This document shows positions 528-60,587 of a DNA stretch of 64,000 nucleotides, in pieces. The DNA lies in assembly GCA_038841535.1 (NCBI GenBank), contig JAWBTQ010000001.1:64001-128000 (forward strand), in the 5' to 3' direction. Origin of the DNA: Sulfolobales archaeon (GTDB taxonomy: Archaea; Thermoproteota; Thermoprotei_A; Sulfolobales; NBVN01). Positions within the stretch are counted from its first letter, which is position 1. Each line of letters starts with the position of its first letter. Below the pieces are notes generated by a model. It did no database searches. It saw only the letters and a program-made list of their open reading frames with translations, and was not told the origin of the DNA. Made by a program: the position numbers and the translations under genes.

Positions 528-827
528 ACCCATCGCTTTCTATCGCCTGGACTCAAACACAGCTCAGACATTGACACCCGCTACCTGCTCTTTAGGGCTT
601 GCCCATGAGTCAACCTCTTAGCGTGTTCTCTGAGGTCTTAACTCAACACTCCTTAGTCATGCTTTCAGTAATTATTTATGGACTCTTGCGGAATTTGGGT
701 ATCTGTAATGTAACTCCAGATCCTTCAAATACTTATCGTGTTGCTCTCTAATGAGGAGTTTGCGGTATCTGGTTCAGGTAGTCATGTCTGGGTACTTATT
801 TTAGTTTACTTAAAACCAGTCTGGGTG

Positions 828-2675
828 ATGGACGTAGGGACTTACACTAAAGAACCGAGATTTATTCTCGCAACAGATGTAGGAAGTACTACTACTAAAG
901 CGAGGTTCTTCGGTAAGATAGACGGTGAGTGGAGGTTTTTAGCCAGTGGTGAGGCACCAACGACTGTCGAGAAGCCTGTAGAAGACGTTACTAAGGGTGT
1001 TAGAAACGCAGTAAGAGAAGTCGAAGAGCTGACGGGGCACAAGATACTCGACGACTCGTCCGAGGAGCTCAAGTTCGTCATGCCCCATAGGGGAGGTAAA
1101 GTAGGTATAGACGTCTACGTATCGACCAGTAGTGCCGGTGGAGGTCTCCAGATGCTTGTGGCCGGCGTTGTCAAGAGCATTACTGCTGAGAGCGCCCAGA
1201 GAGCTGCTCTAGGTGCTGGAGCCATAGTGATGGACGTTCTATCGGTAGACGATGGTAGGGAGGTGCACGAGAAAATAAATACACTGAGGTTTCTAAGGCC
1301 TGACATGATCCTTCTAGCTGGAGGAACTGATGGTGGTGATAAAACCCACGTACTAGAGATGAGTGAGGTAATAGCAGTAGCCAAGCCTCGGCCGAGGTTC
1401 GGGGCTACGTTTAGGCTCCCAGTGGTCTACGCTGGGAATAGGGACGCTAGAGAGGATGTGAAGAGGATACTGCCAGACGACTTCTTCGACGTTAGAATCG
1501 TGGACAACATAAGACCTCAGATAGAGGTGGAGAAAGTTGAGCCTGCGAGAAACGCTATCCTGGAGCTATTCATGGAGCACGTGATGGCCCACGCGCCAGG
1601 ATACGAGAAGTTAATGAAGCTTGTTTCTACAGACATCATGCCGACGCCGGCTGCTGAGGGCCTCATGATAAGAACCTTCGCCGAGATGAAGGAAGTCAAC
1701 GCTATCGGGGTAGGTATGGGCGGTGCTACGACGAACGTGTATTCGGTCTTCGACGGGAGATTTCTGAGAACCGTTAGCGCTAACCTCGGGATGAGCTACA
1801 GCATAGGGAACGTACTGAAGGAGGCAGGCTTAGAGAGCGTTAAGAGGTGGATACCGCTCGACTTAACGGACGACGAGATAATGGGTATAGTCTACAACAA
1901 AATGATTAGACCTACAACAATACCTATGTCTCTAGAGGACCTTGTAGTCGAGCACGCTGTAGCCCGTGAAAGCATAAGGATGGCCTTCAACCATCACAAG
2001 TACTTGGCTAGAGAGCTCAAGGGAGTTAAGAAGGAGAGAACTATATCTGATATATTCGAGGAAGTTAAAGCCGAGGAGACGTATATAGACATGAGGAGGG
2101 TAGACTACATCATAGGGACGGGGGGCCTCCTCTCTCGAGCTCCCAGGAGGGCTCAATCCATGATCATACTAGCAGACGCCTTTCAGCCGATAGGCTTTAC
2201 GTACATAATGCAGGACAGCGTATTCATGATACCCCACCTAGGGGTGCTCTCAAGGATATATAGAGAGATAGCCCTCGAGATATTCGAGAAAGAATGCCTT
2301 GTACCGCTTGGCACTCTAGTTGCAGCTGCAGGTATTGGGACTCCTGGGGAAAAAGTTGCCGATATCACTGTAGAGTACTCTGAGCAAGAGAAAGACCAGA
2401 TAGAGCTAGCGTTTGGAAGTATAGTGAGGATGCCTATACCCCAGTACAAAGAGGTAGTTATAGCCGTAGAGCCGACTAAGAGGTTCGACTTCGGGCAAGG
2501 ATTTGGCAAGAGAGTTAGGAAGAAAGTACGCGGTGGAGTTGTGGGAGTGGTATTTGATGGAAGGGGTAGACCGCTTTATATACCGCAAGACTCAAGAGAA
2601 AGGAGAAAGCTGCTTGTCTCGTGGTTTAAAGCCCTTGAGCTATACCCGGAAGATTTCGTTGTGAAACTAGGCTAG
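828..2675 (+). CDS. GlmL/MutL-like (glutamate mutase L family) ASKHA actin-fold ATPase
   Basis: Phosphate-1 motif DVGSTTTK, plus SSAGGGL, LLAGGTDGG, GMGGATT and FDGRGRPL. Start moved from 738 to the ATG at 828, just before the first motif. Confidence 0.85.
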   Translation: MDVGTYTKEPRFILATDVGSTTTKARFFGKIDGEWRFLASGEAPTTVEKPVEDVTKGVRNAVREVEELTGHKILDDSSEELKFVMPHRGGKVGIDVYVSTSSAGGGLQMLVAGVVKSITAESAQRAALGAGAIVMDVLSVDDGREVHEKINTLRFLRPDMILLAGGTDGGDKTHVLEMSEVIAVAKPRPRFGATFRLPVVYAGNRDAREDVKRILPDDFFDVRIVDNIRPQIEVEKVEPARNAILELFMEHVMAHAPGYEKLMKLVSTDIMPTPAAEGLMIRTFAEMKEVNAIGVGMGGATTNVYSVFDGRFLRTVSANLGMSYSIGNVLKEAGLESVKRWIPLDLTDDEIMGIVYNKMIRPTTIPMSLEDLVVEHAVARESIRMAFNHHKYLARELKGVKKERTISDIFEEVKAEETYIDMRRVDYIIGTGGLLSRAPRRAQSMIILADAFQPIGFTYIMQDSVFMIPHLGVLSRIYREIALEIFEKECLVPLGTLVAAAGIGTPGEKVADITVEYSEQEKDQIELAFGSIVRMPIPQYKEVVIAVEPTKRFDFGQGFGKRVRKKVRGGVVGVVFDGRGRPLYIPQDSRERRKLLVSWFKALELYPEDFVVKLG

Positions 2676-2684
2676 GTGGTTTAA

Positions 2685-3818
2685 GTGAGTGAGGAAAGCT
2701 TTGCGTATACCCCCGGTCTGGCGGTTACACCCCTCACCTACATAACTCGGGAGAGAAGTCTGCCGATTAGGGGAGAAACTCTGGTAGGTCAGGGAAGTAA
2801 AGTAAACTTCGATACGATCGTCAGTAGGTGCTATCTAGAGGGGCCCCCGTACATAGTCAAGGTAGCAGAGCTTCTAGGAGTAGAACCTGAGGAAGTAGTC
2901 AAGTACCTAAGAGTTAGGGTGGGAGATAGCGTTTCTAAGGGTACTAATCTAGCCAGCTACACCGCCTTCCTGGGTCTTTTGAAGAAAGCTGTTGAGTCAC
3001 CGATCGAAGGTGTTGTTGAGAGCTTTAGTGAGATTACTGGACACCTCACTATAAGGGCTCCTCCACGCGTAATAGAGTTGCGAGCATACATCCGTGGAAC
3101 AGTTCTGAAAGTAGTCCCAGGGGAATCCGTCACAGTCGGAACACCAGCCGCATTTATTCAAGGGATCATAGGGTTCGGTGGCGAGAGATATGGAGTAATA
3201 GAGCTAGTATCGTCTAGCAACCAGGACGTATTGGGTCCAGACCAGATAGGCGAACACCACGCTGGTAAGATCATAGTGGGAGGGTCTCTCATAACTTATG
3301 AAGCCCTCGAGAAAGCCAGAAAAGTCGGAGTTGCTGGTATAGTAATTGGTGGAGCTAAAATCACGGACTTGGAGAGGGTCTTAGGCTATAGAATTGGAGT
3401 AGCTATTACTGGAAGGGAGAGCGTCGGGTTCACGATAGTTCTTACGGAGGGCTTTGGAAAGCTACCTATGTCTAAGAGAGCGTTTGATATATTTAAAGAA
3501 AATGAGGGAAGGGAGGCTGCGATCAACGGTGCTACTCAGGTTAGAGCCGGTGTAATAAGACCAGAGGTAATAATTCCCAGAGACGATGAGAGCTTTGCGG
3601 GAATTCTGGAGCCCTTGGGCGAGGGTAAGATGAGAGTTGGAAGCACTGTTAGAATCATAAGGTACCCGCACTTTGGTGAAATAGGGACTGTAGTCGAGCT
3701 CCCCGTGGAGCTACATAAGATCGAGACCGAATCCCCAGTGAGGGTAGTTAGAGTACGCCTCCAAGACGGAAGAGAAGTGCTGATCCCTAGAGCTAATGTA
3801 GAGATAATCAGTGAGTAA
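2685..3818 (+). CDS. Uncharacterised GlmL-associated protein with lipoyl/biotinyl-like barrel-sandwich segments and a C-terminal KOW-like domain
   Basis: Starts 9 nt after the ATPase stop with a GGTGG RBS. Motifs VRVGDSVSKG..VESPIEGVV and C-terminal VGSTVRIIRYPHFGEIGTV..RANVEII. Confidence 0.8.
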   Translation: MSEESFAYTPGLAVTPLTYITRERSLPIRGETLVGQGSKVNFDTIVSRCYLEGPPYIVKVAELLGVEPEEVVKYLRVRVGDSVSKGTNLASYTAFLGLLKKAVESPIEGVVESFSEITGHLTIRAPPRVIELRAYIRGTVLKVVPGESVTVGTPAAFIQGIIGFGGERYGVIELVSSSNQDVLGPDQIGEHHAGKIIVGGSLITYEALEKARKVGVAGIVIGGAKITDLERVLGYRIGVAITGRESVGFTIVLTEGFGKLPMSKRAFDIFKENEGREAAINGATQVRAGVIRPEVIIPRDDESFAGILEPLGEGKMRVGSTVRIIRYPHFGEIGTVVELPVELHKIETESPVRVVRVRLQDGREVLIPRANVEIISE

Positions 3819-17699: not shown

Positions 17700-18662
17700 A
17701 TGTCGTCTGCTTTACTTAGTGTAAGCGATGTGAGGATATACTACTACACGCTTACCGGGATAGTTAGAGCTGTTGATGGTGTAAGCTTTCAGTTAGCGGA
17801 AGGAGAGGTTCTAGGCATCGCTGGAGAGTCGGGTTGCGGGAAGTCTACACTAGGCTACGGTCTTCTGGGACTAATCCCACCTCCAGGTAGGATCGTGCGT
17901 GGGTCTATTGTTTTAGATGGTATAGACATTGCCAAGCTCAAGCCAGCTGAATTGAGAAAGGTGAGGTGGGCTAAGGTCAGTATGGTCTTTCAGGGAGCTA
18001 TGAACGCTCTAAACCCTGTATACACGGTAGGTCATCAGCTAGCTGAGCCACTAGTCCTCCACAAAGGCTTGAGCGTGAAGGAATCCCTAGATGTAGCTTC
18101 TGAAATGGTTAAAAGAGTCGGTCTAACACCAGAAGTCCTCAAGAGATACCCTCACGAGTTAAGTGGAGGTATGAAGCAGAGAGTTATGATAGCTATGGCT
18201 CTCCTTCTAAAGCCCAGGTTAGTTATTGCCGATGAGCCTACTACGGCCCTCGATGTAGTGATTCAAGCACAAATAATGAATCTATTTAAAGAGATCAGGC
18301 AGGCGGAGAGAAACGCTATGATCTTCATAACCCACGACCTCAGCTTAATTGCTGAGATAGCAGATAAGACGGGTGTTATGTACGCTGGAAAGATGGTCGA
18401 AATAGGGTCTTCTGAGTCAGTCTTTGGCAACCCACTTCACCCGTATACCCAGGGACTTCTTAGGAGCATTCCAAGGCTGAAGGGGAAGGAGAAGATCACT
18501 TGGATTCCCGGGGTTCCTCCAGACCTCAGAATGCCTCCTCCTGGTTGTAGGTTCCACCCGAGGTGCCCGTACGCAATGGACGTCTGCAGGTCTGAAGAAC
18601 CCCCAGAAATAGAAGTAGAGAAAGGACGCACAGTTTCTTGCTGGCTCTACGCAAAGAGGTGA
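17700..18662 (+). CDS. oppD: Oligopeptide/dipeptide ABC transporter ATPase, OppD/DppD type
   Basis: GESGCGKS, LSGGMKQR, ADEPTTALD, C-terminal GCRFHPRC..C..C. Confidence 0.93.
   Translation: MSSALLSVSDVRIYYYTLTGIVRAVDGVSFQLAEGEVLGIAGESGCGKSTLGYGLLGLIPPPGRIVRGSIVLDGIDIAKLKPAELRKVRWAKVSMVFQGAMNALNPVYTVGHQLAEPLVLHKGLSVKESLDVASEMVKRVGLTPEVLKRYPHELSGGMKQRVMIAMALLLKPRLVIADEPTTALDVVIQAQIMNLFKEIRQAERNAMIFITHDLSLIAEIADKTGVMYAGKMVEIGSSESVFGNPLHPYTQGLLRSIPRLKGKEKITWIPGVPPDLRMPPPGCRFHPRCPYAMDVCRSEEPPEIEVEKGRTVSCWLYAKR
18537..18658 (+). repeat. 122-bp perfect direct repeat, copy 1 (3' end of oppD)
   Basis: Identical to 19599-19720. Confidence 0.95.
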
Positions 18663-18668
18663 TGAGCT

Positions 18669-19724
18669 GTGAGCTCCAAGCTTATATTAGAGAAAGCGTA
18701 TAAGTACTTCCCGTTAAGGAGGTCTCTAGTCGAAATATTAACGCTGAGGAAGCCTAGATACGTTAGAGCTGTGGACGGGATAAGCTTCGCAGTCGATGAA
18801 GGAGAGATTTACTGCCTGGCTGGTGAGTCTGGCTGTGGAAAGACGACTACTGGGAGGCTCGTAGTCAGGTTAATAGACTTTACTGGAGGTAGAGCTCTCT
18901 ACATGCCGAGGAAGGAGCTACTCTCTGAGATACCCTCGACATTCTTAGTTGACGGCAAGTACGTGGACTTAACGGAGAAGCTACCGAGATACGTAGATAA
19001 GCTATTGAGAAGAGACATCCAGATAATATTCCAGGACCCGTACGGGTCCCTTAACCCCAGGATGAGGATTTACGACATCTTAAAGGAGCCTTTAGACATA
19101 CATGGAGTGGGATCTACTGAAGACGAAAGAAGAGAATTAGTCTTTAAGGCCTTAGAAGAAGTAAAGATGACGCCTCCGGAGGAGTTCGCCGAGAGATATC
19201 CCCACATGTTATCCGGTGGTCAGAGGCAGAGAATAGCTATAGCGAGAGCTCTAATACTCAACCCGTCTCTCGTAGTAGCTGATGAACCCGTGAGCATGTT
19301 GGACGTTTCCATAAGAGCTGAGATACTCCAACTTATGCTGGACTTGAAGGCTATGAGAAACCTTACGTACGTATTCATTACTCACGACCTAGCAGTAGCT
19401 GCTTACATCTGCGACAAGTTAGCCATAATGTACTTAGGTGCCATAGTCGAAAAAGGCTCTATATCCAGTATAGTTAACAACCCACTCCACCCGTACTCTA
19501 AGGCGTTGATAGCGGCAGTCCCAGAGCCCGACCCTAGAAATAGGTTCAAAATTAGGGAGGTTCCGATAAAGGGAGAAATACCTAGTGCCGCCAACATACC
19601 TCCTGGTTGTAGGTTCCACCCGAGGTGCCCGTACGCAATGGACGTCTGCAGGTCTGAAGAACCCCCAGAAATAGAAGTAGAGAAAGGACGCACAGTTTCT
19701 TGCTGGCTCTACGCAAAGAGATAA
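18669..19724 (+). CDS. oppF: Oligopeptide/dipeptide ABC transporter ATPase, OppF/DppF type
   Basis: GESGCGKT, FQDPYGSLNPR, LSGGQRQR, DEPVSMLD. Confidence 0.93.
   Translation: MSSKLILEKAYKYFPLRRSLVEILTLRKPRYVRAVDGISFAVDEGEIYCLAGESGCGKTTTGRLVVRLIDFTGGRALYMPRKELLSEIPSTFLVDGKYVDLTEKLPRYVDKLLRRDIQIIFQDPYGSLNPRMRIYDILKEPLDIHGVGSTEDERRELVFKALEEVKMTPPEEFAERYPHMLSGGQRQRIAIARALILNPSLVVADEPVSMLDVSIRAEILQLMLDLKAMRNLTYVFITHDLAVAAYICDKLAIMYLGAIVEKGSISSIVNNPLHPYSKALIAAVPEPDPRNRFKIREVPIKGEIPSAANIPPGCRFHPRCPYAMDVCRSEEPPEIEVEKGRTVSCWLYAKR
19599..19720 (+). repeat. 122-bp perfect direct repeat, copy 2 (3' end of oppF)
   Basis: Identical to 18537-18658. Confidence 0.95.
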
Positions 19725-19793
19725 TTCGTACAGTTTATATAAGGTTTTCTTAGTCAACTTATTAAAACTTATATACTGTAGTCTAACACATAT

Positions 19794-50107: not shown

Positions 50108-50755
50108 GTGGCAACATTTAAGGTAGTGGTTGGGGATCCAGAGGCCAAGGACCCTAAGGAGGTTTACGTAAGAGTAGTTGAATCCAGCGAGTTGAAGCTG
50201 ACTGAGGCAATGAAAGAAGGGAGAGAGCTCTTGAGAGCGAGAGCTAACCCTAAGTTAGTCGAGAATCTCAAAACTCCTTACAGGATTGCCACGATTAGAA
50301 TATGGAAAGATAGAGCTAAGAAGGAAAAACTTAGTCTGACAGTGAGGCTCGAACTAGATCCCAGCGTTCCTGAAGGGGTTGTTTATGTTCCAGCAGGCCC
50401 TCTCTCGGAGAAACTTGGGAGTAGTGAAGCTCTAGCTGAGATATTTAGAGCAAAGAACTTCCAGATAGTGGTGGACGGCTCGAGAGCAGCAGCCTTTATA
50501 GGAAAAAAGATAGGTGACACCTTAGATGCTTCTATCATCGGCTTACCCGGGAAGAAGCTATTGATAACTGGAGGCTCGGATTCCTCAGGTTTCCCGATGC
50601 TTCAGAGCGTGCCTGGTTCCGCTAAGAGACTCCTCCTACTTTCTTCACCACCAGGGTACCACCCGCACAACGAAGGCGAAAGAAGGAGGAAAATGGTAAG
50701 AGGGAACACTGTAAGCGAAGACGTAGTTCAAATAAATACGAAGCTCGTTGACTAA
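50108..50755 (+). CDS. rps6e: 30S ribosomal protein S6e (long crenarchaeal form)
   Basis: FKVVVGDP, GKKIGD, ITGGSDSSGFPM, GERRRKMVRGN, QIN. Confidence 0.95.
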   Translation: MATFKVVVGDPEAKDPKEVYVRVVESSELKLTEAMKEGRELLRARANPKLVENLKTPYRIATIRIWKDRAKKEKLSLTVRLELDPSVPEGVVYVPAGPLSEKLGSSEALAEIFRAKNFQIVVDGSRAAAFIGKKIGDTLDASIIGLPGKKLLITGGSDSSGFPMLQSVPGSAKRLLLLSSPPGYHPHNEGERRRKMVRGNTVSEDVVQINTKLVD

Positions 50756-51166: not shown

Positions 51167-51424
51167 CTATTGACTTAGCTTTTCAATTTTACTTACAAGC
51201 TTTTCTACTTTTTCTGGGTCTTGGAGAACGCTGAGGAATATCTCCCCGTAATCTCCAAGTAGGATAAGGAGTGGCTGGAGATAGAGTCTAGCAAGCTGGG
51301 CCCATACTCGGCCCATGGGACCGAACGAACTAAGTAAAAAAATAACTATCGTATCGAGCTTGGAGTCTACTATTCTTTTCGCTAGCTTCTCTAGCAGTTC
51401 GTCCTCGCTGATAGGCCCCGACAT
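51167..51424 (-). CDS. Small uncharacterised protein, last gene of the membrane operon
   Basis: ATG at 51424 follows the upstream stop with a GAGG RBS. Sequence LEKLAKRIVD..IFLLSSFGPMG..EKLVSKIE. Confidence 0.75.
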   Translation of the reverse strand: MSGPISEDELLEKLAKRIVDSKLDTIVIFLLSSFGPMGRVWAQLARLYLQPLLILLGDYGEIFLSVLQDPEKVEKLVSKIEKLSQ

Positions 51425-51426
51425 AA

Positions 51427-52155
51427 TTACCTCTTTCTCAGGATACCTAGGATTATTGCTATAGCGGCTAGGATCGCTGCTATAATTGAGGCCCATGCCT
51501 GCGGCTGTATGTATATCAAGTAGATAGATATTAGGAACCCCACTCTAGTCATTATAGTGTTGGCGAAAAGTGCTCCGAAACCGACCATCATTCCGTAAAT
51601 ACCGATGTAATAGAAAGCTCTGTAGATTAAGTGCTGAGGAGACGCCCCAGCACCCTCTACTCTTCTTGGAAATATAGTAAAGAGGAAGTAAGTCAGTCCG
51701 CCAAGCGTTATTAAGACTAGTATCCAGTTGTTGAGCACCTTGACTGGGTCAGAACCCCAGAGTGGAACTATAGTAGCAGTAATCTGTCTAACTACGTTTG
51801 CTATAGGCACTGTTCTCAGAGCTAGCCCAGTACCAACAGCTATGTTAATAGCAACTGCGTACCTAGCCAGCCAGTAGTACTTTCTAGAGTATTTAATGAA
51901 CATCAGTGCGCCAAGTATGGCTGGAACTAAGTAGTGCCATGAGGTGCTCCAGAAGGTTCCAGGACTTTTAACTGCTGGTGACACGAGTACCTTATTCAGG
52001 CTGTCTAGAGCTAAAGCTATCGAGTAGCCAGCAGCAGTTCCTACGAACATGTGCTCAGCCACCTTATAGAACACGTTATCTCTATAAACAAAGCTGTATA
52101 TCCAGACGACCATGGCGGCACAGAGCCAGGCCCCGAACACTTCCCAGCCGATCAT
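51427..52155 (-). CDS. Uncharacterised polytopic membrane protein
   Basis: About 7 TM segments, YSFVYRDN..YKVAEH..VG..AGY motif, overlaps the upstream stop. Confidence 0.85.
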   Translation of the reverse strand: MIGWEVFGAWLCAAMVVWIYSFVYRDNVFYKVAEHMFVGTAAGYSIALALDSLNKVLVSPAVKSPGTFWSTSWHYLVPAILGALMFIKYSRKYYWLARYAVAINIAVGTGLALRTVPIANVVRQITATIVPLWGSDPVKVLNNWILVLITLGGLTYFLFTIFPRRVEGAGASPQHLIYRAFYYIGIYGMMVGFGALFANTIMTRVGFLISIYLIYIQPQAWASIIAAILAAIAIILGILRKR

Positions 52156-53003
52156 TTTGACTCACCTCTCTTGGCTGAAAACCTCTTGCTCCAGTACATG
52201 GCGTTCCCTATAACAATGAAGGCTACTATCAGCATGTGGGATGTGCTCTGCGCATCCATAGATGCTATACCAAGCCCGAGCCTCCCTACTAGAACCTCGT
52301 ACTCGGCCGCAGACCTCTGGCCGACAAGCATCCCTACGGCCTGCTTAGCACCTACGAATGGCTCTATTGAGGGGGCTATGACACTCAAAGCCGCGAATAA
52401 GAGGGGTACTCCGTAAGGTGTGTACCACTGCCTTATGTAGTATGAGAATATGTCAGTACCGGATGAGACTATGATTACTAAGTCAAAGTCTGTTGCCTTA
52501 TCTACTTCTTTCATCAGTGAGAGATCCTCTAACCTGTTACCGTAGTTATCGACGCTTATCGTACCCTTGATGCTCTTAGCTAGAGAAGCGGATGCTGCTT
52601 CCCCGCCCGCTATGTATCCAAGGTATACATAGTCCTTCCCGTACTCCTTGCCATCAAATAGGTCCGCAGCCATTGATCTAAAGAGAGAGAAAGCCACTAC
52701 ACCGAAAGCGCTTAGCGAGCCGTAGACTATCTTGCATCCCTTATCGAAGAAATGCTTCGTTAAAGCTATGAGATTAGGTTCTAGCTCCCCTCTAGCAGCA
52801 ACCTCGTAGTATACCTCTATGTAAACGCGGCAGCCCGGACGCAGATTCGTTTCGATATAGTTATACACGTCTCGAGTTCTCTGAGATATTTCAACCGGGA
52901 TTCCAAGGGGATGTAGTATCGGCAGGATAACTGAGAGTAGTAGAAGAGTGTAGAGGAGCTCTTTGGATCCCAGGATTTTCTCCAGGGAACTGCCTCCACT
53001 CAT
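52152..53003 (-). CDS. Uncharacterised membrane-anchored protein with a central alpha/beta domain
   Basis: N- and C-terminal TM segments, YGKDYVYLGY, G..GQRSAAEYE, MDAQS. Confidence 0.85.
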   Translation of the reverse strand: MSGGSSLEKILGSKELLYTLLLLSVILPILHPLGIPVEISQRTRDVYNYIETNLRPGCRVYIEVYYEVAARGELEPNLIALTKHFFDKGCKIVYGSLSAFGVVAFSLFRSMAADLFDGKEYGKDYVYLGYIAGGEAASASLAKSIKGTISVDNYGNRLEDLSLMKEVDKATDFDLVIIVSSGTDIFSYYIRQWYTPYGVPLLFAALSVIAPSIEPFVGAKQAVGMLVGQRSAAEYEVLVGRLGLGIASMDAQSTSHMLIVAFIVIGNAMYWSKRFSAKRGESK

Positions 53004-53004
53004 T

Positions 53005-53694
53005 TTACTCTCGCCTCCCCATCCAGCTCACCTCCCTCCACATCAGCAGTCTCAGGCCTAGGATTATAGTTCCTAGACCGGCACCTATAGTGATTGGCCT
53101 AAAGGCAGCAGTGTTTGGAACGGTCATTATCCAGTCCCTCAGGGGTAAGAAGCCGGGCCAGATCAGCCCACCAACAGTGGTGTTTCCGAAGATTACGATG
53201 AGTGCTGTAACGAGGAGCAGTAAAGCCATCGGGTTTCTGACTCTAAAAGCTCTATACGAAGCTGAAGCTATGTAGAAAACTAGTATTGAATACATAGCAG
53301 CATCGGCTGGAGCGTAGACGTTGAGATACAGCCATCTAAACTGAGGCTGAGTAGTTATCGTTATGCCTGCCTTAGGGTCGACATAGCTGAGGAACCAGCC
53401 GTACAAAGCGAAGAGAACCATGACCATGAGCAGTCCTATGGTAACCGCACTGAATGGTGCCTGCTTTAGGCCTTCCCTCTTTAACCTTACCAGGTGGAAC
53501 CTCAGTATATCGGTTCCTCCAACTATTAGAGCGAAGCTCGTGATAATTACGGCCCAATCACTCAGTGCTTTATCGGCTGTAGTGAAAGATTCTGCGATAT
53601 TTTTATTAATGTAGAGATAGTAGAAGGCAACTGTTAGTATTACTATGGTCGTAACAATGAGCTGGGGGATGTGTCTCCTGACAACTATACTCAT
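53005..53694 (-). CDS. Uncharacterised polytopic membrane protein
   Basis: About 6 TM segments, FYIASASYRAFRVRN, DWIMTVPNTAAFR..IG. Confidence 0.85.
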   Translation of the reverse strand: MSIVVRRHIPQLIVTTIVILTVAFYYLYINKNIAESFTTADKALSDWAVIITSFALIVGGTDILRFHLVRLKREGLKQAPFSAVTIGLLMVMVLFALYGWFLSYVDPKAGITITTQPQFRWLYLNVYAPADAAMYSILVFYIASASYRAFRVRNPMALLLLVTALIVIFGNTTVGGLIWPGFLPLRDWIMTVPNTAAFRPITIGAGLGTIILGLRLLMWREVSWMGRRE

Positions 53695-53698
53695 ATCC

Positions 53699-54592
53699 TC
53701 ACCCTACCTTCCATACCCAGTTGAGGGCATCTACCAGCTTGTAGCCTCCGAAGAGCAGCAATACCCCTAAGACGATTAGCACTATCGAGAGAACCTTACC
53801 TATGTCTTGACCCCTTATCGAGGCAAGAGTCTCCTTATCTCCCGATGCTAGTGCTCCTGCTGCAAATATTTCCTCGCCTATGAAGGAGTAGTCTGCTACC
53901 AAAACGAAGAACGGTATCTGAGTCTCTCTAGCTGTTCCTGCTATCTGAAAAGCGTTCACCATGTTTCCTGCCTCCATAAATATTAGGGACTCAGCGTAGA
54001 AGGGACCTACGACTATGTTGGCACCGACTCTTTCTCTAATCAGTGTTGCCTGAACAGCTGAGGCGTAAGCAAACTGCTGGTCTGTTAAGTACCTCACGTT
54101 ATATGTAGGGTCATAGAGCTCCGGTCTACTGGAGGAATAGTAGCCCTCTCTAACTATCTCTTCTGTCGTAGCTATTGCCTCAGGTACACCTAGAGTGGCG
54201 ATTAGCTTTGCTCCGTACCTACCGCACAATCTAGCAACGTGCGACAGTACCCCTAGGCCAGCGATAAATTGCGGTGCCATAGCAGACGATATGGTTCCAA
54301 AGCCAAAAGTCATGTGTACGGGCCTACCCATTTCAACTGATCTAGCTACAGCCTCCTCTATAGCATCAAAAGCAGGTATCTTTCTCACGGGAAATTCCTT
54401 ACCTATCTTAGCTTCAGACATAAAGATGTAGCCTACTACTAGCAAAGCTAGGAGTATTAAGAAGGCCGAAAAAGGAGCACGCGTTGAATAGAGCTGAACT
54501 CCTCGCAACCAGCTGATACCAGACACAACAGCTATGAGTACCAAAACAGCAATAGCCAATAATACCCCTAAAGAGGTCTTCAGATACGTCAC
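53699..54592 (-). CDS. DUF6754-like membrane protein
   Basis: N-terminal TMs, RKIPAFDAIEEAVARSVEMGRPVH, G.FYAESL..EAG, QIAGT, IGEEIFAAGA. Confidence 0.8.
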   Translation of the reverse strand: MTYLKTSLGVLLAIAVLVLIAVVSGISWLRGVQLYSTRAPFSAFLILLALLVVGYIFMSEAKIGKEFPVRKIPAFDAIEEAVARSVEMGRPVHMTFGFGTISSAMAPQFIAGLGVLSHVARLCGRYGAKLIATLGVPEAIATTEEIVREGYYSSSRPELYDPTYNVRYLTDQQFAYASAVQATLIRERVGANIVVGPFYAESLIFMEAGNMVNAFQIAGTARETQIPFFVLVADYSFIGEEIFAAGALASGDKETLASIRGQDIGKVLSIVLIVLGVLLLFGGYKLVDALNWVWKVG

Positions 54593-54850
54593 CTCACCAC
54601 TATCTTAATAACTAAGATTAAAAACTTTATACGATTAAAGCTTCAGAGTACTTTAAGAAAACGTTTCCACGAAATGAGCAGAAATAATTTAGTTGCCATA
54701 TTTATTGTAATCGTTTACGTTCTCTCTCAGAAACTTAGTCAGCGCTTCAAGGGCTCTTTAGTGAAGGACTCCGGCTATCAATACTTATATGAGCCCACAT
54801 GATACGGAAGATGAAGGGTTTCTTAGCTGTTTCACTGCGATATTTATCGA

Positions 54851-55116
54851 AGGTTACGCAATGTCTTTAAGTCGTGATGAGTGTAGCGCCTTTGCTGGTT
54901 CGGGGCGGCACCGACAGCCAACACCAGAGCTGCTCAGAGGATGAATAAGGAGATTTAGATGTGGGCCCCGCCCCGTTGTGCTCGAAGAGGGGTCGTGACT
55001 CTCGCACATAATGGCTTGTAGCCACGATGAGCTGCTGACAAAATCCCAACTGACCCAGAAAACCTAGAGAAACCTTGGGGTCGGTAGCCCTGCGGTAACC
55101 TGGCTCTACCTTCAGC
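54851..55116 (+). mobile_element. Copy 2 of the structured non-coding repeat (IS110-like non-coding end), with no transposase following
   Basis: Colinear with 130-356. K-turn-like boxes GTGATGA..CCGA and GTGA..CGATGA, and a TTCG-loop hairpin. Confidence 0.6.
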
Positions 55117-55201
55117 ATCCCCTAGTTTTGCATAGAGTCTCTCTAAAGTTTCACGAAAGTTCGTATATACTATTTAGGTAGATACTAACCGAGGTGTAAC
55201 T

Positions 55202-59653: not shown

Positions 59654-59931
59654 AATATTAAGTACACTTCACGAACCTCCTGAGATCCACTCTCACAAGT
59701 ACTGCTGGACTGAAGTGTACATCTGAAGACGCGACGTAATTTAGAAGTACTTACCGCATCTAACTGCTGAACTACTTATGGAGGGCATTTGCTATATTCG
59801 CATGTATTCCTGAGTCCTGATGCTCTCTAGCACCTAGATACCTACTTCGTTCACGTAAATAGTATTCCTGCTATCCATAAGCTAGCAACTATGGTCACTA
59901 ATAGCGGGAACTCTTTGAAGGGGCACGAAAG

Positions 59932-60008
<77 letters not shown>

Positions 60009-60062
60009 CATCTTACACATTTAATATCTTTAGTTTTAAGCTTTAAGTATTGGAGGCCTAGT

Positions 60063-60587
60063 GTGTCTATAAGGGTAGCTTATAGTGCGCTTAGAAGGAA
60101 GAACTCTAAAGAACTAGTCGAGAAATTCTGCGAGTTATATCCTAGAGCCTGCTTGAGTTTGGGGGCAAGTTCTACATCGCTAGTTTACGCAGCTGTATTC
60201 GATGGTGAAGTGATTTACGTAATAGATGGAGTCCCAGCAGCATTTAAGAGTGGGGAAATACTAGCTCCAACACTTGTTTCTGCTAGGATGACTGGAATCG
60301 AGGCATTTCACTACGCTGTCGTAGATGAGGGAGCTGTTAAACCGATACTCAATGGAGCTGACGTCATGGCTCCAGGAATATTGAGAGTAAGTGACTTTAG
60401 TGCTGGTGTTATCGTAGTCGTTTGGTCTAGAGACGAGAAAACACCTCTTGCTGTAACTCAAGCACTTATGGGTTCAAGTGAAGTGGTATCCAAGCGTAGG
60501 GGTAAGGCCTTAAAGAACTTGCACTACGCTGGTGACGGTATATGGAGGGTGTCTCTTGAAGTATTAAAGAAGTTCGGGAAAGTGTGA
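60063..60587 (+). CDS. PUA-domain RNA-binding protein (MCT-1/Tma20-like)
   Basis: VDEGAVKPILNGADVMAPGI, RGKALKNLHYAGD. Start trimmed to exclude the antisense tRNA. Confidence 0.9.
   Translation: MSIRVAYSALRRKNSKELVEKFCELYPRACLSLGASSTSLVYAAVFDGEVIYVIDGVPAAFKSGEILAPTLVSARMTGIEAFHYAVVDEGAVKPILNGADVMAPGILRVSDFSAGVIVVVWSRDEKTPLAVTQALMGSSEVVSKRRGKALKNLHYAGDGIWRVSLEVLKKFGKV

Follow-up and report, generated by a model that had tools for sequence, protein, structure and literature searches.

The DNA examined here, called the window, is a 64,000-nucleotide stretch of the genome of a Sulfolobales archaeon (GTDB lineage Archaea; Thermoproteota; Thermoprotei_A; Sulfolobales; NBVN01), taken from the forward strand of contig JAWBTQ010000001.1 (positions 64,001 to 128,000; GenBank assembly GCA_038841535.1). 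It carries a locus of five genes, comprising four membrane-protein genes (g1–g4, the cassette) and one small gene (g5), together with a distant gene pair for a GlmL-like ATPase (A) and its partner (B). The system formed by these genes is widespread in bacteria and archaea, and its components are inherited and arranged together. The window was recognised as archaeal by its open reading frames (ORFs), which include Cdc6, TBP, Nre, S6e, FttA, a glycerol-1-phosphate-dehydrogenase-like Fe-ADH and a proteasome subunit.

The five-gene locus and the distant ATPase genes

The genes are listed in Table 1. Genes g1–g5 are arranged head to tail on one strand with gaps of 4, 1, −4 and 2 nt, and the tight coupling noted in a preliminary description of this DNA was borne out by the ORF coordinates. 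The GlmL-like gene and its partner had been placed far from the membrane genes in that description; the distance was confirmed as 47.3 kb between A-B and g5.

Table 1. Genes of the system in the window (positions counted from the first nucleotide of the window).
Gene	Position	Strand	Remarks
g1	54592-53699	−	297 aa
g2	53694-53005	−	229 aa
g3	53003-52152	−	283 aa
g4	52155-51427	−	242 aa
g5	51424-51167	−	85 aa; longest ORF reaches 51496
A (GlmL-like)	738-2675	+	PF13941
B (partner of A)	2685-3818	+	377 aa; 3′ of A

Gene g1 encodes a member of PF20539 (DUF6754; E 2.3e-69, 233.8 bits against a cut-off of 27, profile positions 10–246 of 257), and A matched PF13941 over the full profile (positions 1–450 of 450; 398.7 bits, E 4.2e-119). 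No Pfam or NCBIfam family was matched by g2, g3, g4 or g5, and no Pfam family by B of the window; functional annotation was thus missing for six of the seven proteins, five being without a Pfam family and g1 having only a domain of unknown function. DUF6754 and PF13941 each occur once in the source genome (1.56 Mb, 84 % complete). Contigs from the RNA library of one metatranscriptome spanned positions 51580–54593 (g4 to g1), with g5 and the flanking intergenic bins uncovered; because DNA may be present in such a library, this cover is weak evidence of expression. The longest ORF of A opens with GTG at position 738; similarity to homologs and to same-genus DNA starts near position 848, and the N-terminus of the family aligns with M31. 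The ATG at position 828 (M31) is probably the real start and would give a protein of about 615 aa.

Gene order, copy number and rearrangement

Loci were collected by a scan with an alignment of g1 over one genome per GTDB species; 609 loci were confirmed, and gene orders were counted in the best 80. The hosts of these 80 loci were archaea (Bathyarchaeia, Methanomethylicia, Culexarchaeum and other archaea) and bacteria (Bacillota, Zixibacteria, Eisenbacteria, Ignavibacteria, Phycisphaerae, Armatimonadota, Acidobacteriota, Cloacimonadota and others). A complete and colinear g1-g2-g3-g4 cassette was present at 77 of the 80 loci (100 cassettes in total); of the three exceptions, one had g1 alone, one lacked a g2 match and one was cut by contig ends. 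A or B was found within the 10-kb flanks at 29 loci, most commonly in the order A-B-g1-g2-g3-g4 (ten loci); A-B was accompanied by two tandem cassettes at three loci and by three at another three, and the remaining loci had different orders. With a profile hidden Markov model of g5, 30 homologs were detected among the fetched loci, and almost every one of them immediately precedes A; g5 adjoined A at 24 of the 29 loci with A or B, and at the remaining five A lay at the edge of the fetched DNA, its upstream neighbour falling outside. Gene g5, which belongs to a conserved family, is therefore a real seventh component and, in most genomes, a member of the ATPase module, so that the seven-component system of the preliminary description stood.

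Three other genomes of the archaeon's own phylum were searched by tblastn with the proteins of the window; the order g1-g2-g3-g4 was kept at all 12 DUF6754 sites fetched (the contig of one genome, G125, ends after g3), and A and B always formed an adjacent pair. Among 301 genomes of the phylum, DUF6754 occurred in eight and PF13941 in seven, namely the same seven; the eighth DUF6754 match, at the end of a contig, was a fragment of 82 aa. Ten genomes with loci lacking A-B were spot-checked, and all ten had a PF13941 gene of 600–660 aa at another site; one of the ten is a duplicate of a genome counted before. In a class of Bacillota (210 genomes) DUF6754 was present in 79 genomes and PF13941 in 114, including all 79; 35 of the 131 genomes without DUF6754 had PF13941, with listed open frames mostly of about 450–560 aa. 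The Fisher test on the hand-compared lists gave 2e-30, a value that is overstated because related genomes are not independent. From these genome-level counts (7/7, 10/10 and 79/79) the membrane genes are not commonly found in genomes that lack the GlmL-like gene. Together with the gene order at 29 of the 80 loci, this agrees with the preliminary description in linking the membrane genes to the GlmL-like pair. The system was also found on contigs of Symbiobacterium (L067, L083), a genus with cultured strains. At five Bacillota loci (L049, L060, L067, L074 and L083) the cassette is followed by two A-B pairs (1234-A-B-g5-A-B), and the first B gave a split tblastn match, which suggests an insertion.

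Cassettes can be more numerous than ATPase genes. The ratio of DUF6754 to PF13941 genes was 7:1 in genome G080, 4:1 in G272 and 8:1 in G278, and many Bacillota with genomes of about 2 Mb had at least 11 DUF6754 matches (about 44 genes as cassettes) and 3–7 PF13941 genes. Gene g5 was single-copy in all five genomes tested, including G080, G278 and G303. The presence of many cassettes beside a single g5 (and, in the archaea tested, a single A) suggests that one ATPase module is common to interchangeable membrane modules.

Among the relatives of the archaeon, DUF6754 was found in eight of nine other genomes of the genus and in the one genome of the sister genus, and in none of two genomes from other genera of the family or eight genomes from other families of the order. 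In G519 and G523 (same genus) g1-g2-g3-g4-g5-A-B is contiguous on one strand; in G528 (sister genus) the cassette and B-A are adjacent and convergent; in the window, G520 and G525, A and g1 are on opposite strands, 53–56 kb apart. An inversion-type rearrangement within the genus broke the operon apart at the junction of g5 with A, which is why g5 sits with the cassette in the window. That a rearrangement had parted the membrane genes from A-B, as previously suspected, was thus borne out by G519 and G523. Because contiguity is common elsewhere, we infer that the contiguous order is probably the ancestral one; the order in the window and that in G519 differ by more than one event. The opposite strands and the 47-kb gap could also be read as functional uncoupling or decay, the cassette being independent of A-B in this genome. 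This is very improbable: the ORFs of all seven genes (g1–g5, A and B) are intact in the window, the split is shared with G520 and G525, in which both parts are retained, and A-B is absent within 10 kb at 51 of the 80 loci, with A elsewhere in each spot-checked genome.

An IS110-like element, the same upstream of both parts, had been put forward as a possible mark of the rearrangement. A shared element is indeed present, in the form of a non-coding repeat of about 300–340 nt (49–414 and 54798–55139, both on the plus strand; 22 nhmmer hits in the 1.56-Mb genome, 20 of them outside these two), but there is no IS110 transposase: PF01548 and PF02371 gave no match in the window ORFs or in the 84 %-complete genome (6 of 14 control genomes were positive), and no transposase family was matched by the window ORFs of at least 110 aa. 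The repeat has conserved blocks; no Rfam match was obtained, and the RNAalifold consensus structure (−9.5) was not convincing. Since it is missing from both matching sites in G520, it appears to be recently mobile, perhaps MITE-like (a miniature inverted-repeat transposable element). Repeat-mediated inversion was considered and rejected: both copies point the same way, one of them does not coincide with a breakpoint, and G520 is split likewise with neither copy in place. The repeats are thus later insertions and neither caused nor mark the rearrangement.

Components of the cassette and of the ATPase module

AlphaFold2 models of g3 and g1 (predicted local distance difference test scores 95.6 and 84.2) each place a three-layer Rossmann-like α/β domain between a transmembrane (TM) helix and a long C-terminal TM helix, in agreement with the two membrane-anchored α/β-domain proteins first recognised; g1 of the window has an additional hydrophobic N-terminal helix. 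In g1 (n=106) the K+R count is 3.9 on the domain flanks vs 0.8 and 0.7 at the termini, and by the positive-inside rule the domain is predicted to be cytoplasmic. In g3 (n=52) the termini are rich in K+R and the domain flanks are acidic, a bias that predicts an extracytoplasmic domain. Structure 1kjn was matched by both models (Foldseek/VIA-align; g3: Z 10.7, root mean square deviation 3.4, 140 aligned residues; g1: Z 9.8, 3.1, 132 aligned residues); further matches at Z 8–10 were to dehydrogenases, sirtuins and RCK/KTN domains. The g1 and g3 profiles gave no meaningful match to PDB chains. Searches of the ESM Atlas with g3 and B returned only clusters of 'hypothetical protein', without a structure for either. 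Comparison of g1 with g3 by hhalign (E 5.8e-4, probability 29 %) suggests that g3 is possibly a distant paralog of g1; all other subunit pairs, g2–g4 included, gave no hhalign match. Among the paralogous cassettes of G080 (cassette L037 was excluded, its g2 ORF call being split), g1 is the best-conserved cassette subunit, with a mean identity of 40.5 % vs 30.2, 31.4 and 29.7 % for g2, g3 and g4. R70, E80, R84, E87, R186, E201 and E207 make up an invariant patch of g1.

Protein g2 reads as polytopic with about six TM helices and both termini inside by the positive-inside rule, and its YRAFR segment reads as lying at the predicted cytoplasmic turn between TM4 and TM5. R148, F150 and R151 of this segment are nearly invariant across 51 sequences. 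None of the 51 g2 homologs matched a Pfam or NCBIfam family; sub-threshold TMD0_ABC matches in six of them (best E 0.001) were taken as noise. For g4, 2971 cluster representatives (50 % identity) were found at E ≤0.001, and neither g4 nor its homologs belong to a known Pfam or NCBIfam family. Its invariant residues are E34 (in AEH; invariant in 47 sequences), W95, R98, F157 and F159; AEH and YRAFR, earlier singled out as motif-like, are thus conserved. Natural g3–g4 fusions (P0039, P0044) have a linker with one extra TM helix; from this and the charge bias, g4 probably has at least seven TM helices and its N-terminus outside. An earlier model of g4 with six TM helices and the N-terminus inside was dropped once the extra helix had been seen. 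A few g4 homologs have TIG or EF-hand inserts in a loop after profile position ~131, predicted to face outward. No Cys or His is found among the invariant columns of g1–g4, which argues against redox cofactors.

The g5 family consists of small conserved proteins of about 85–100 aa; no clear TM segment was found in g5, as no hydrophobic window reaches a Kyte–Doolittle (KD) value of 1.6.

Protein A scored below all NCBIfam cut-offs (GlmL NF040745, 226.7 vs 475; Or-4 NF040744, 224.6 vs 600) and below the subfamily cut-off of TIGR01319 (160.9 vs 204), and its C-terminus is extended by about 125 aa. An alignment of A across the domains of life had a mean column identity of 57 %; DxGSTTTKA and GGATT are invariant, as are the nucleotide-binding (phosphate and adenosine) motifs, and of Cys and His, only H275 and H467 are conserved, both nearly invariant. 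A phmmer search of A against all PDB chains gave no match at E ≤0.01. B consists of a barrel-sandwich hybrid N-terminus, a Rossmann-like middle and a KOW-like C-terminus; 26 of 37 homologs matched Biotin_lipoyl and as many RnfC_N, both weakly (best E 2.3e-6), six of 37 matched KOW, and the sole PDB match was a weak one to the KOW domain of Spt5. The 37 sequences have a mean identity of 54 % and 36 invariant columns, including TEGFG and GATQxRAG; the conserved lysine of biotinyl and lipoyl carriers is absent from their invariant and nearly invariant columns.

An 876-aa A-B fusion was observed at L127 (5390-8020, contig G310:C10), with a diverged A-like part (41 % identity) and a B-like region (30 %); no g1–g4 cassette was found within the 12 kb fetched. 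It may represent a paralogous A-B system with another partner.

Function of the system

The best explanation, to which a probability of about one half is assigned, is that the g1–g4 cassette, g5 and A-B form one seven-protein, ATP-dependent uptake system with a modularity like that of energy-coupling factor (ECF) transporters. A modular uptake system fits best with cassette multiplication beside a conserved ATPase set, an outward variable domain, charged polytopic subunits and a conserved inward domain. In such a system g1 would be the constant coupling subunit that receives A-B-g5, g3 together with g2 and g4 would give specificity, and one energising module (A-B-g5) would serve many membrane modules. 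We infer both that transport is driven by the ATPase and that the ATPase docks there. A prediction of the complex of A, g5 and residues 63–256 of g1, run without controls and without B, gave a median score of 0.31 against a mark of 0.32, which says nothing either way about binding. The more specific proposal is put forward tentatively, at less than even odds: a primary active transporter of a new class, energised by an ATPase of the acetate and sugar kinase/Hsc70/actin (ASKHA) superfamily, in which A-B-g5 would dock on the Rossmann domain of g1 and serve up to a dozen four-protein modules, the outward g3 selecting the substrate.

The nearest organisational likeness is to group II ECF transporters, in which one cytoplasmic ATPase module serves many dispersed membrane modules; here one A and one g5 stand beside 7–8 cassettes. 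There is no homology, however, the variable unit being four proteins and the ATPase fold ASKHA, and no ABC ATPase, EcfT or S-component family was found in the seven proteins (Pfam/NCBIfam). ATP-binding cassette (ABC) importers with membrane-anchored binding domains likewise combine polytopic subunits and a cytoplasmic ATPase with an outward domain, as predicted for g3, but g3 is a single Rossmann-like domain on two TM helices. ABC_tran, BPD_transp and substrate-binding-protein families were absent from g1–g5, and neither ABC_tran nor an ABC transmembrane domain was found in A or B above threshold. Compared with binding proteins (Foldseek, VIA), g3 gave TM-scores of 0.14–0.17 and a Z of 8.5 over 122 residues, no better than dehydrogenases. 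Domains of the tripartite TRAP and TTT transporters and of the major facilitator superfamily (MFS) (DctQ/DctM, TctA/TctB, MFS) gave no sequence-family match, g2 and g4 being compared by sequence only. At that level the absence of ABC, MFS and TRAP motifs from the membrane genes, as first described, was upheld.

Protein A resembles GlmL/MutL and Or-4 (PF13941) in matching the full profile and keeping the ASKHA nucleotide-binding motifs, but differs from them in its scores far below the equivalog cut-offs, its C-terminal extension, its obligate partner B and its link to a membrane cassette. No B12-mutase family (GlmS/GlmE context) was found among the window ORFs of at least 110 aa, the rest of the genome not being searched. 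DdrAB and EutA offer a further analogy, an ASKHA ATPase with a Rossmann-containing partner, for which the Rossmann-like domain of g1, predicted to be cytoplasmic, would be a counterpart; here no B12 enzyme is involved, and A lacks a PDB match at the threshold given above. These relationships bear on a second explanation, in which A-B-g5 is a maintenance or gating factor (assembly, reset or regulation) for ion-coupled transporters or channels and ATP is not stoichiometrically coupled. Its relation to GlmL would make A a helper like GlmL and the reactivases of B12 enzymes; one A-B-g5 beside 7–8 cassettes would suit a catalytic helper equally, and the invariant buried charges of g2 and g4 (E34, R98, R199) recall ion-coupled carriers. 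It is nevertheless considered unlikely, as A-B is very often in the operon of the cassette in a fixed order, which is more typical of stoichiometric subunits, and the window has no B12-mutase context.

Less probable again is a metabolic rather than physical link, in which g1–g4 would act as sensor, enzyme or carrier, and A-B as a cytoplasmic ATP-dependent enzyme (a hydantoinase/oxoprolinase-like ASKHA protein) on the same compound. PF13941, which we take from its Pfam description to resemble the hydantoinase branch, would suit such an enzyme, and conservation as extreme as that of B is often found in catalytic subunits; oxoprolinase-like, creatininase and amidohydrolase genes also adjoin some cassettes. 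Set against this are the need for one enzyme pair to serve up to eight cassettes diverged to 30–40 % identity, the lack of significant enrichment among neighbours, and the position of the g1 cytoplasmic domain as the best-conserved part of the cassette, which suggests a common protein contact.

The neighbouring genes likewise do not disclose a substrate for the proposed uptake system. Peptide or amino-acid uptake, put forward in the preliminary description, was not supported: peptidase and amidohydrolase genes recur beside cassettes, but their enrichment is not significant (11 of 128 nearest neighbours vs 7–8 of 150 distal genes; p 0.22–0.34), and this context was discounted as evidence for such a substrate. 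In two archaea (L034, 9543-11496; L042, 4293-6242) genes for an oxaloacetate-decarboxylase-alpha-like carboxyltransferase and a biotin carrier lie directly upstream of the cassette on the same strand, and these cassettes also adjoin 5-oxoprolinase-like CT_A_B/CT_C_D genes; such neighbours may hint at the substrate or the energy coupling of that paralog.

Several points weigh against ATP-driven uptake by a shared ATPase, the peptidase counts among them. Sequence-family searches revealed no signature of a transport family in any of the subunits; g2, g4, B and g5 were judged at that level, and structural similarity to a known transporter is possible. Structure searches with g1 and g3 returned generic Rossmann folds only, with no binding-protein or enzyme family prominent, and the predicted topology comes from the positive-inside rule and the fusions alone. 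Characterised relatives of GlmL are helpers of B12 enzymes, not motors, as the names of NF040745 and NF040744 indicate. The Bacillota have 3–7 paralogs of A, so one shared ATPase is not universal. A full-text literature search, with subscription journals mostly outside its reach and supplements not covered, found no publication treating the system.

Elsewhere in the window, two tandem genes for oligopeptide-type ABC ATPases (ABC_tran and oligo_HPY; 17700-19724) are 98 % identical over a 127-nt stretch at the 3′ end of each (18537-18663 and 19599-19725), which could be due to gene conversion between paralogs. The S6e ORF (50108-50755, 215 aa) is covered by Pfam S6e over residues 115–214 only; its ~100 N-terminal residues are either an extension, an insertion or the result of a mis-set start. 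The longest ORF of a PUA-domain protein (59931-60587) overlaps with its 5′ end a tRNA-Ala on the opposite strand (59932-60008), and the true start is probably further downstream.

Known ATP-driven membrane transport uses few ATPase folds, among them those of the ABC, P-type and rotary systems. If the proposed uptake system is real, ASKHA would be a new ATPase fold for transporters. As the hosts are mostly uncultured anaerobes and thermophiles, metabolic models of these organisms may lack a major membrane function.

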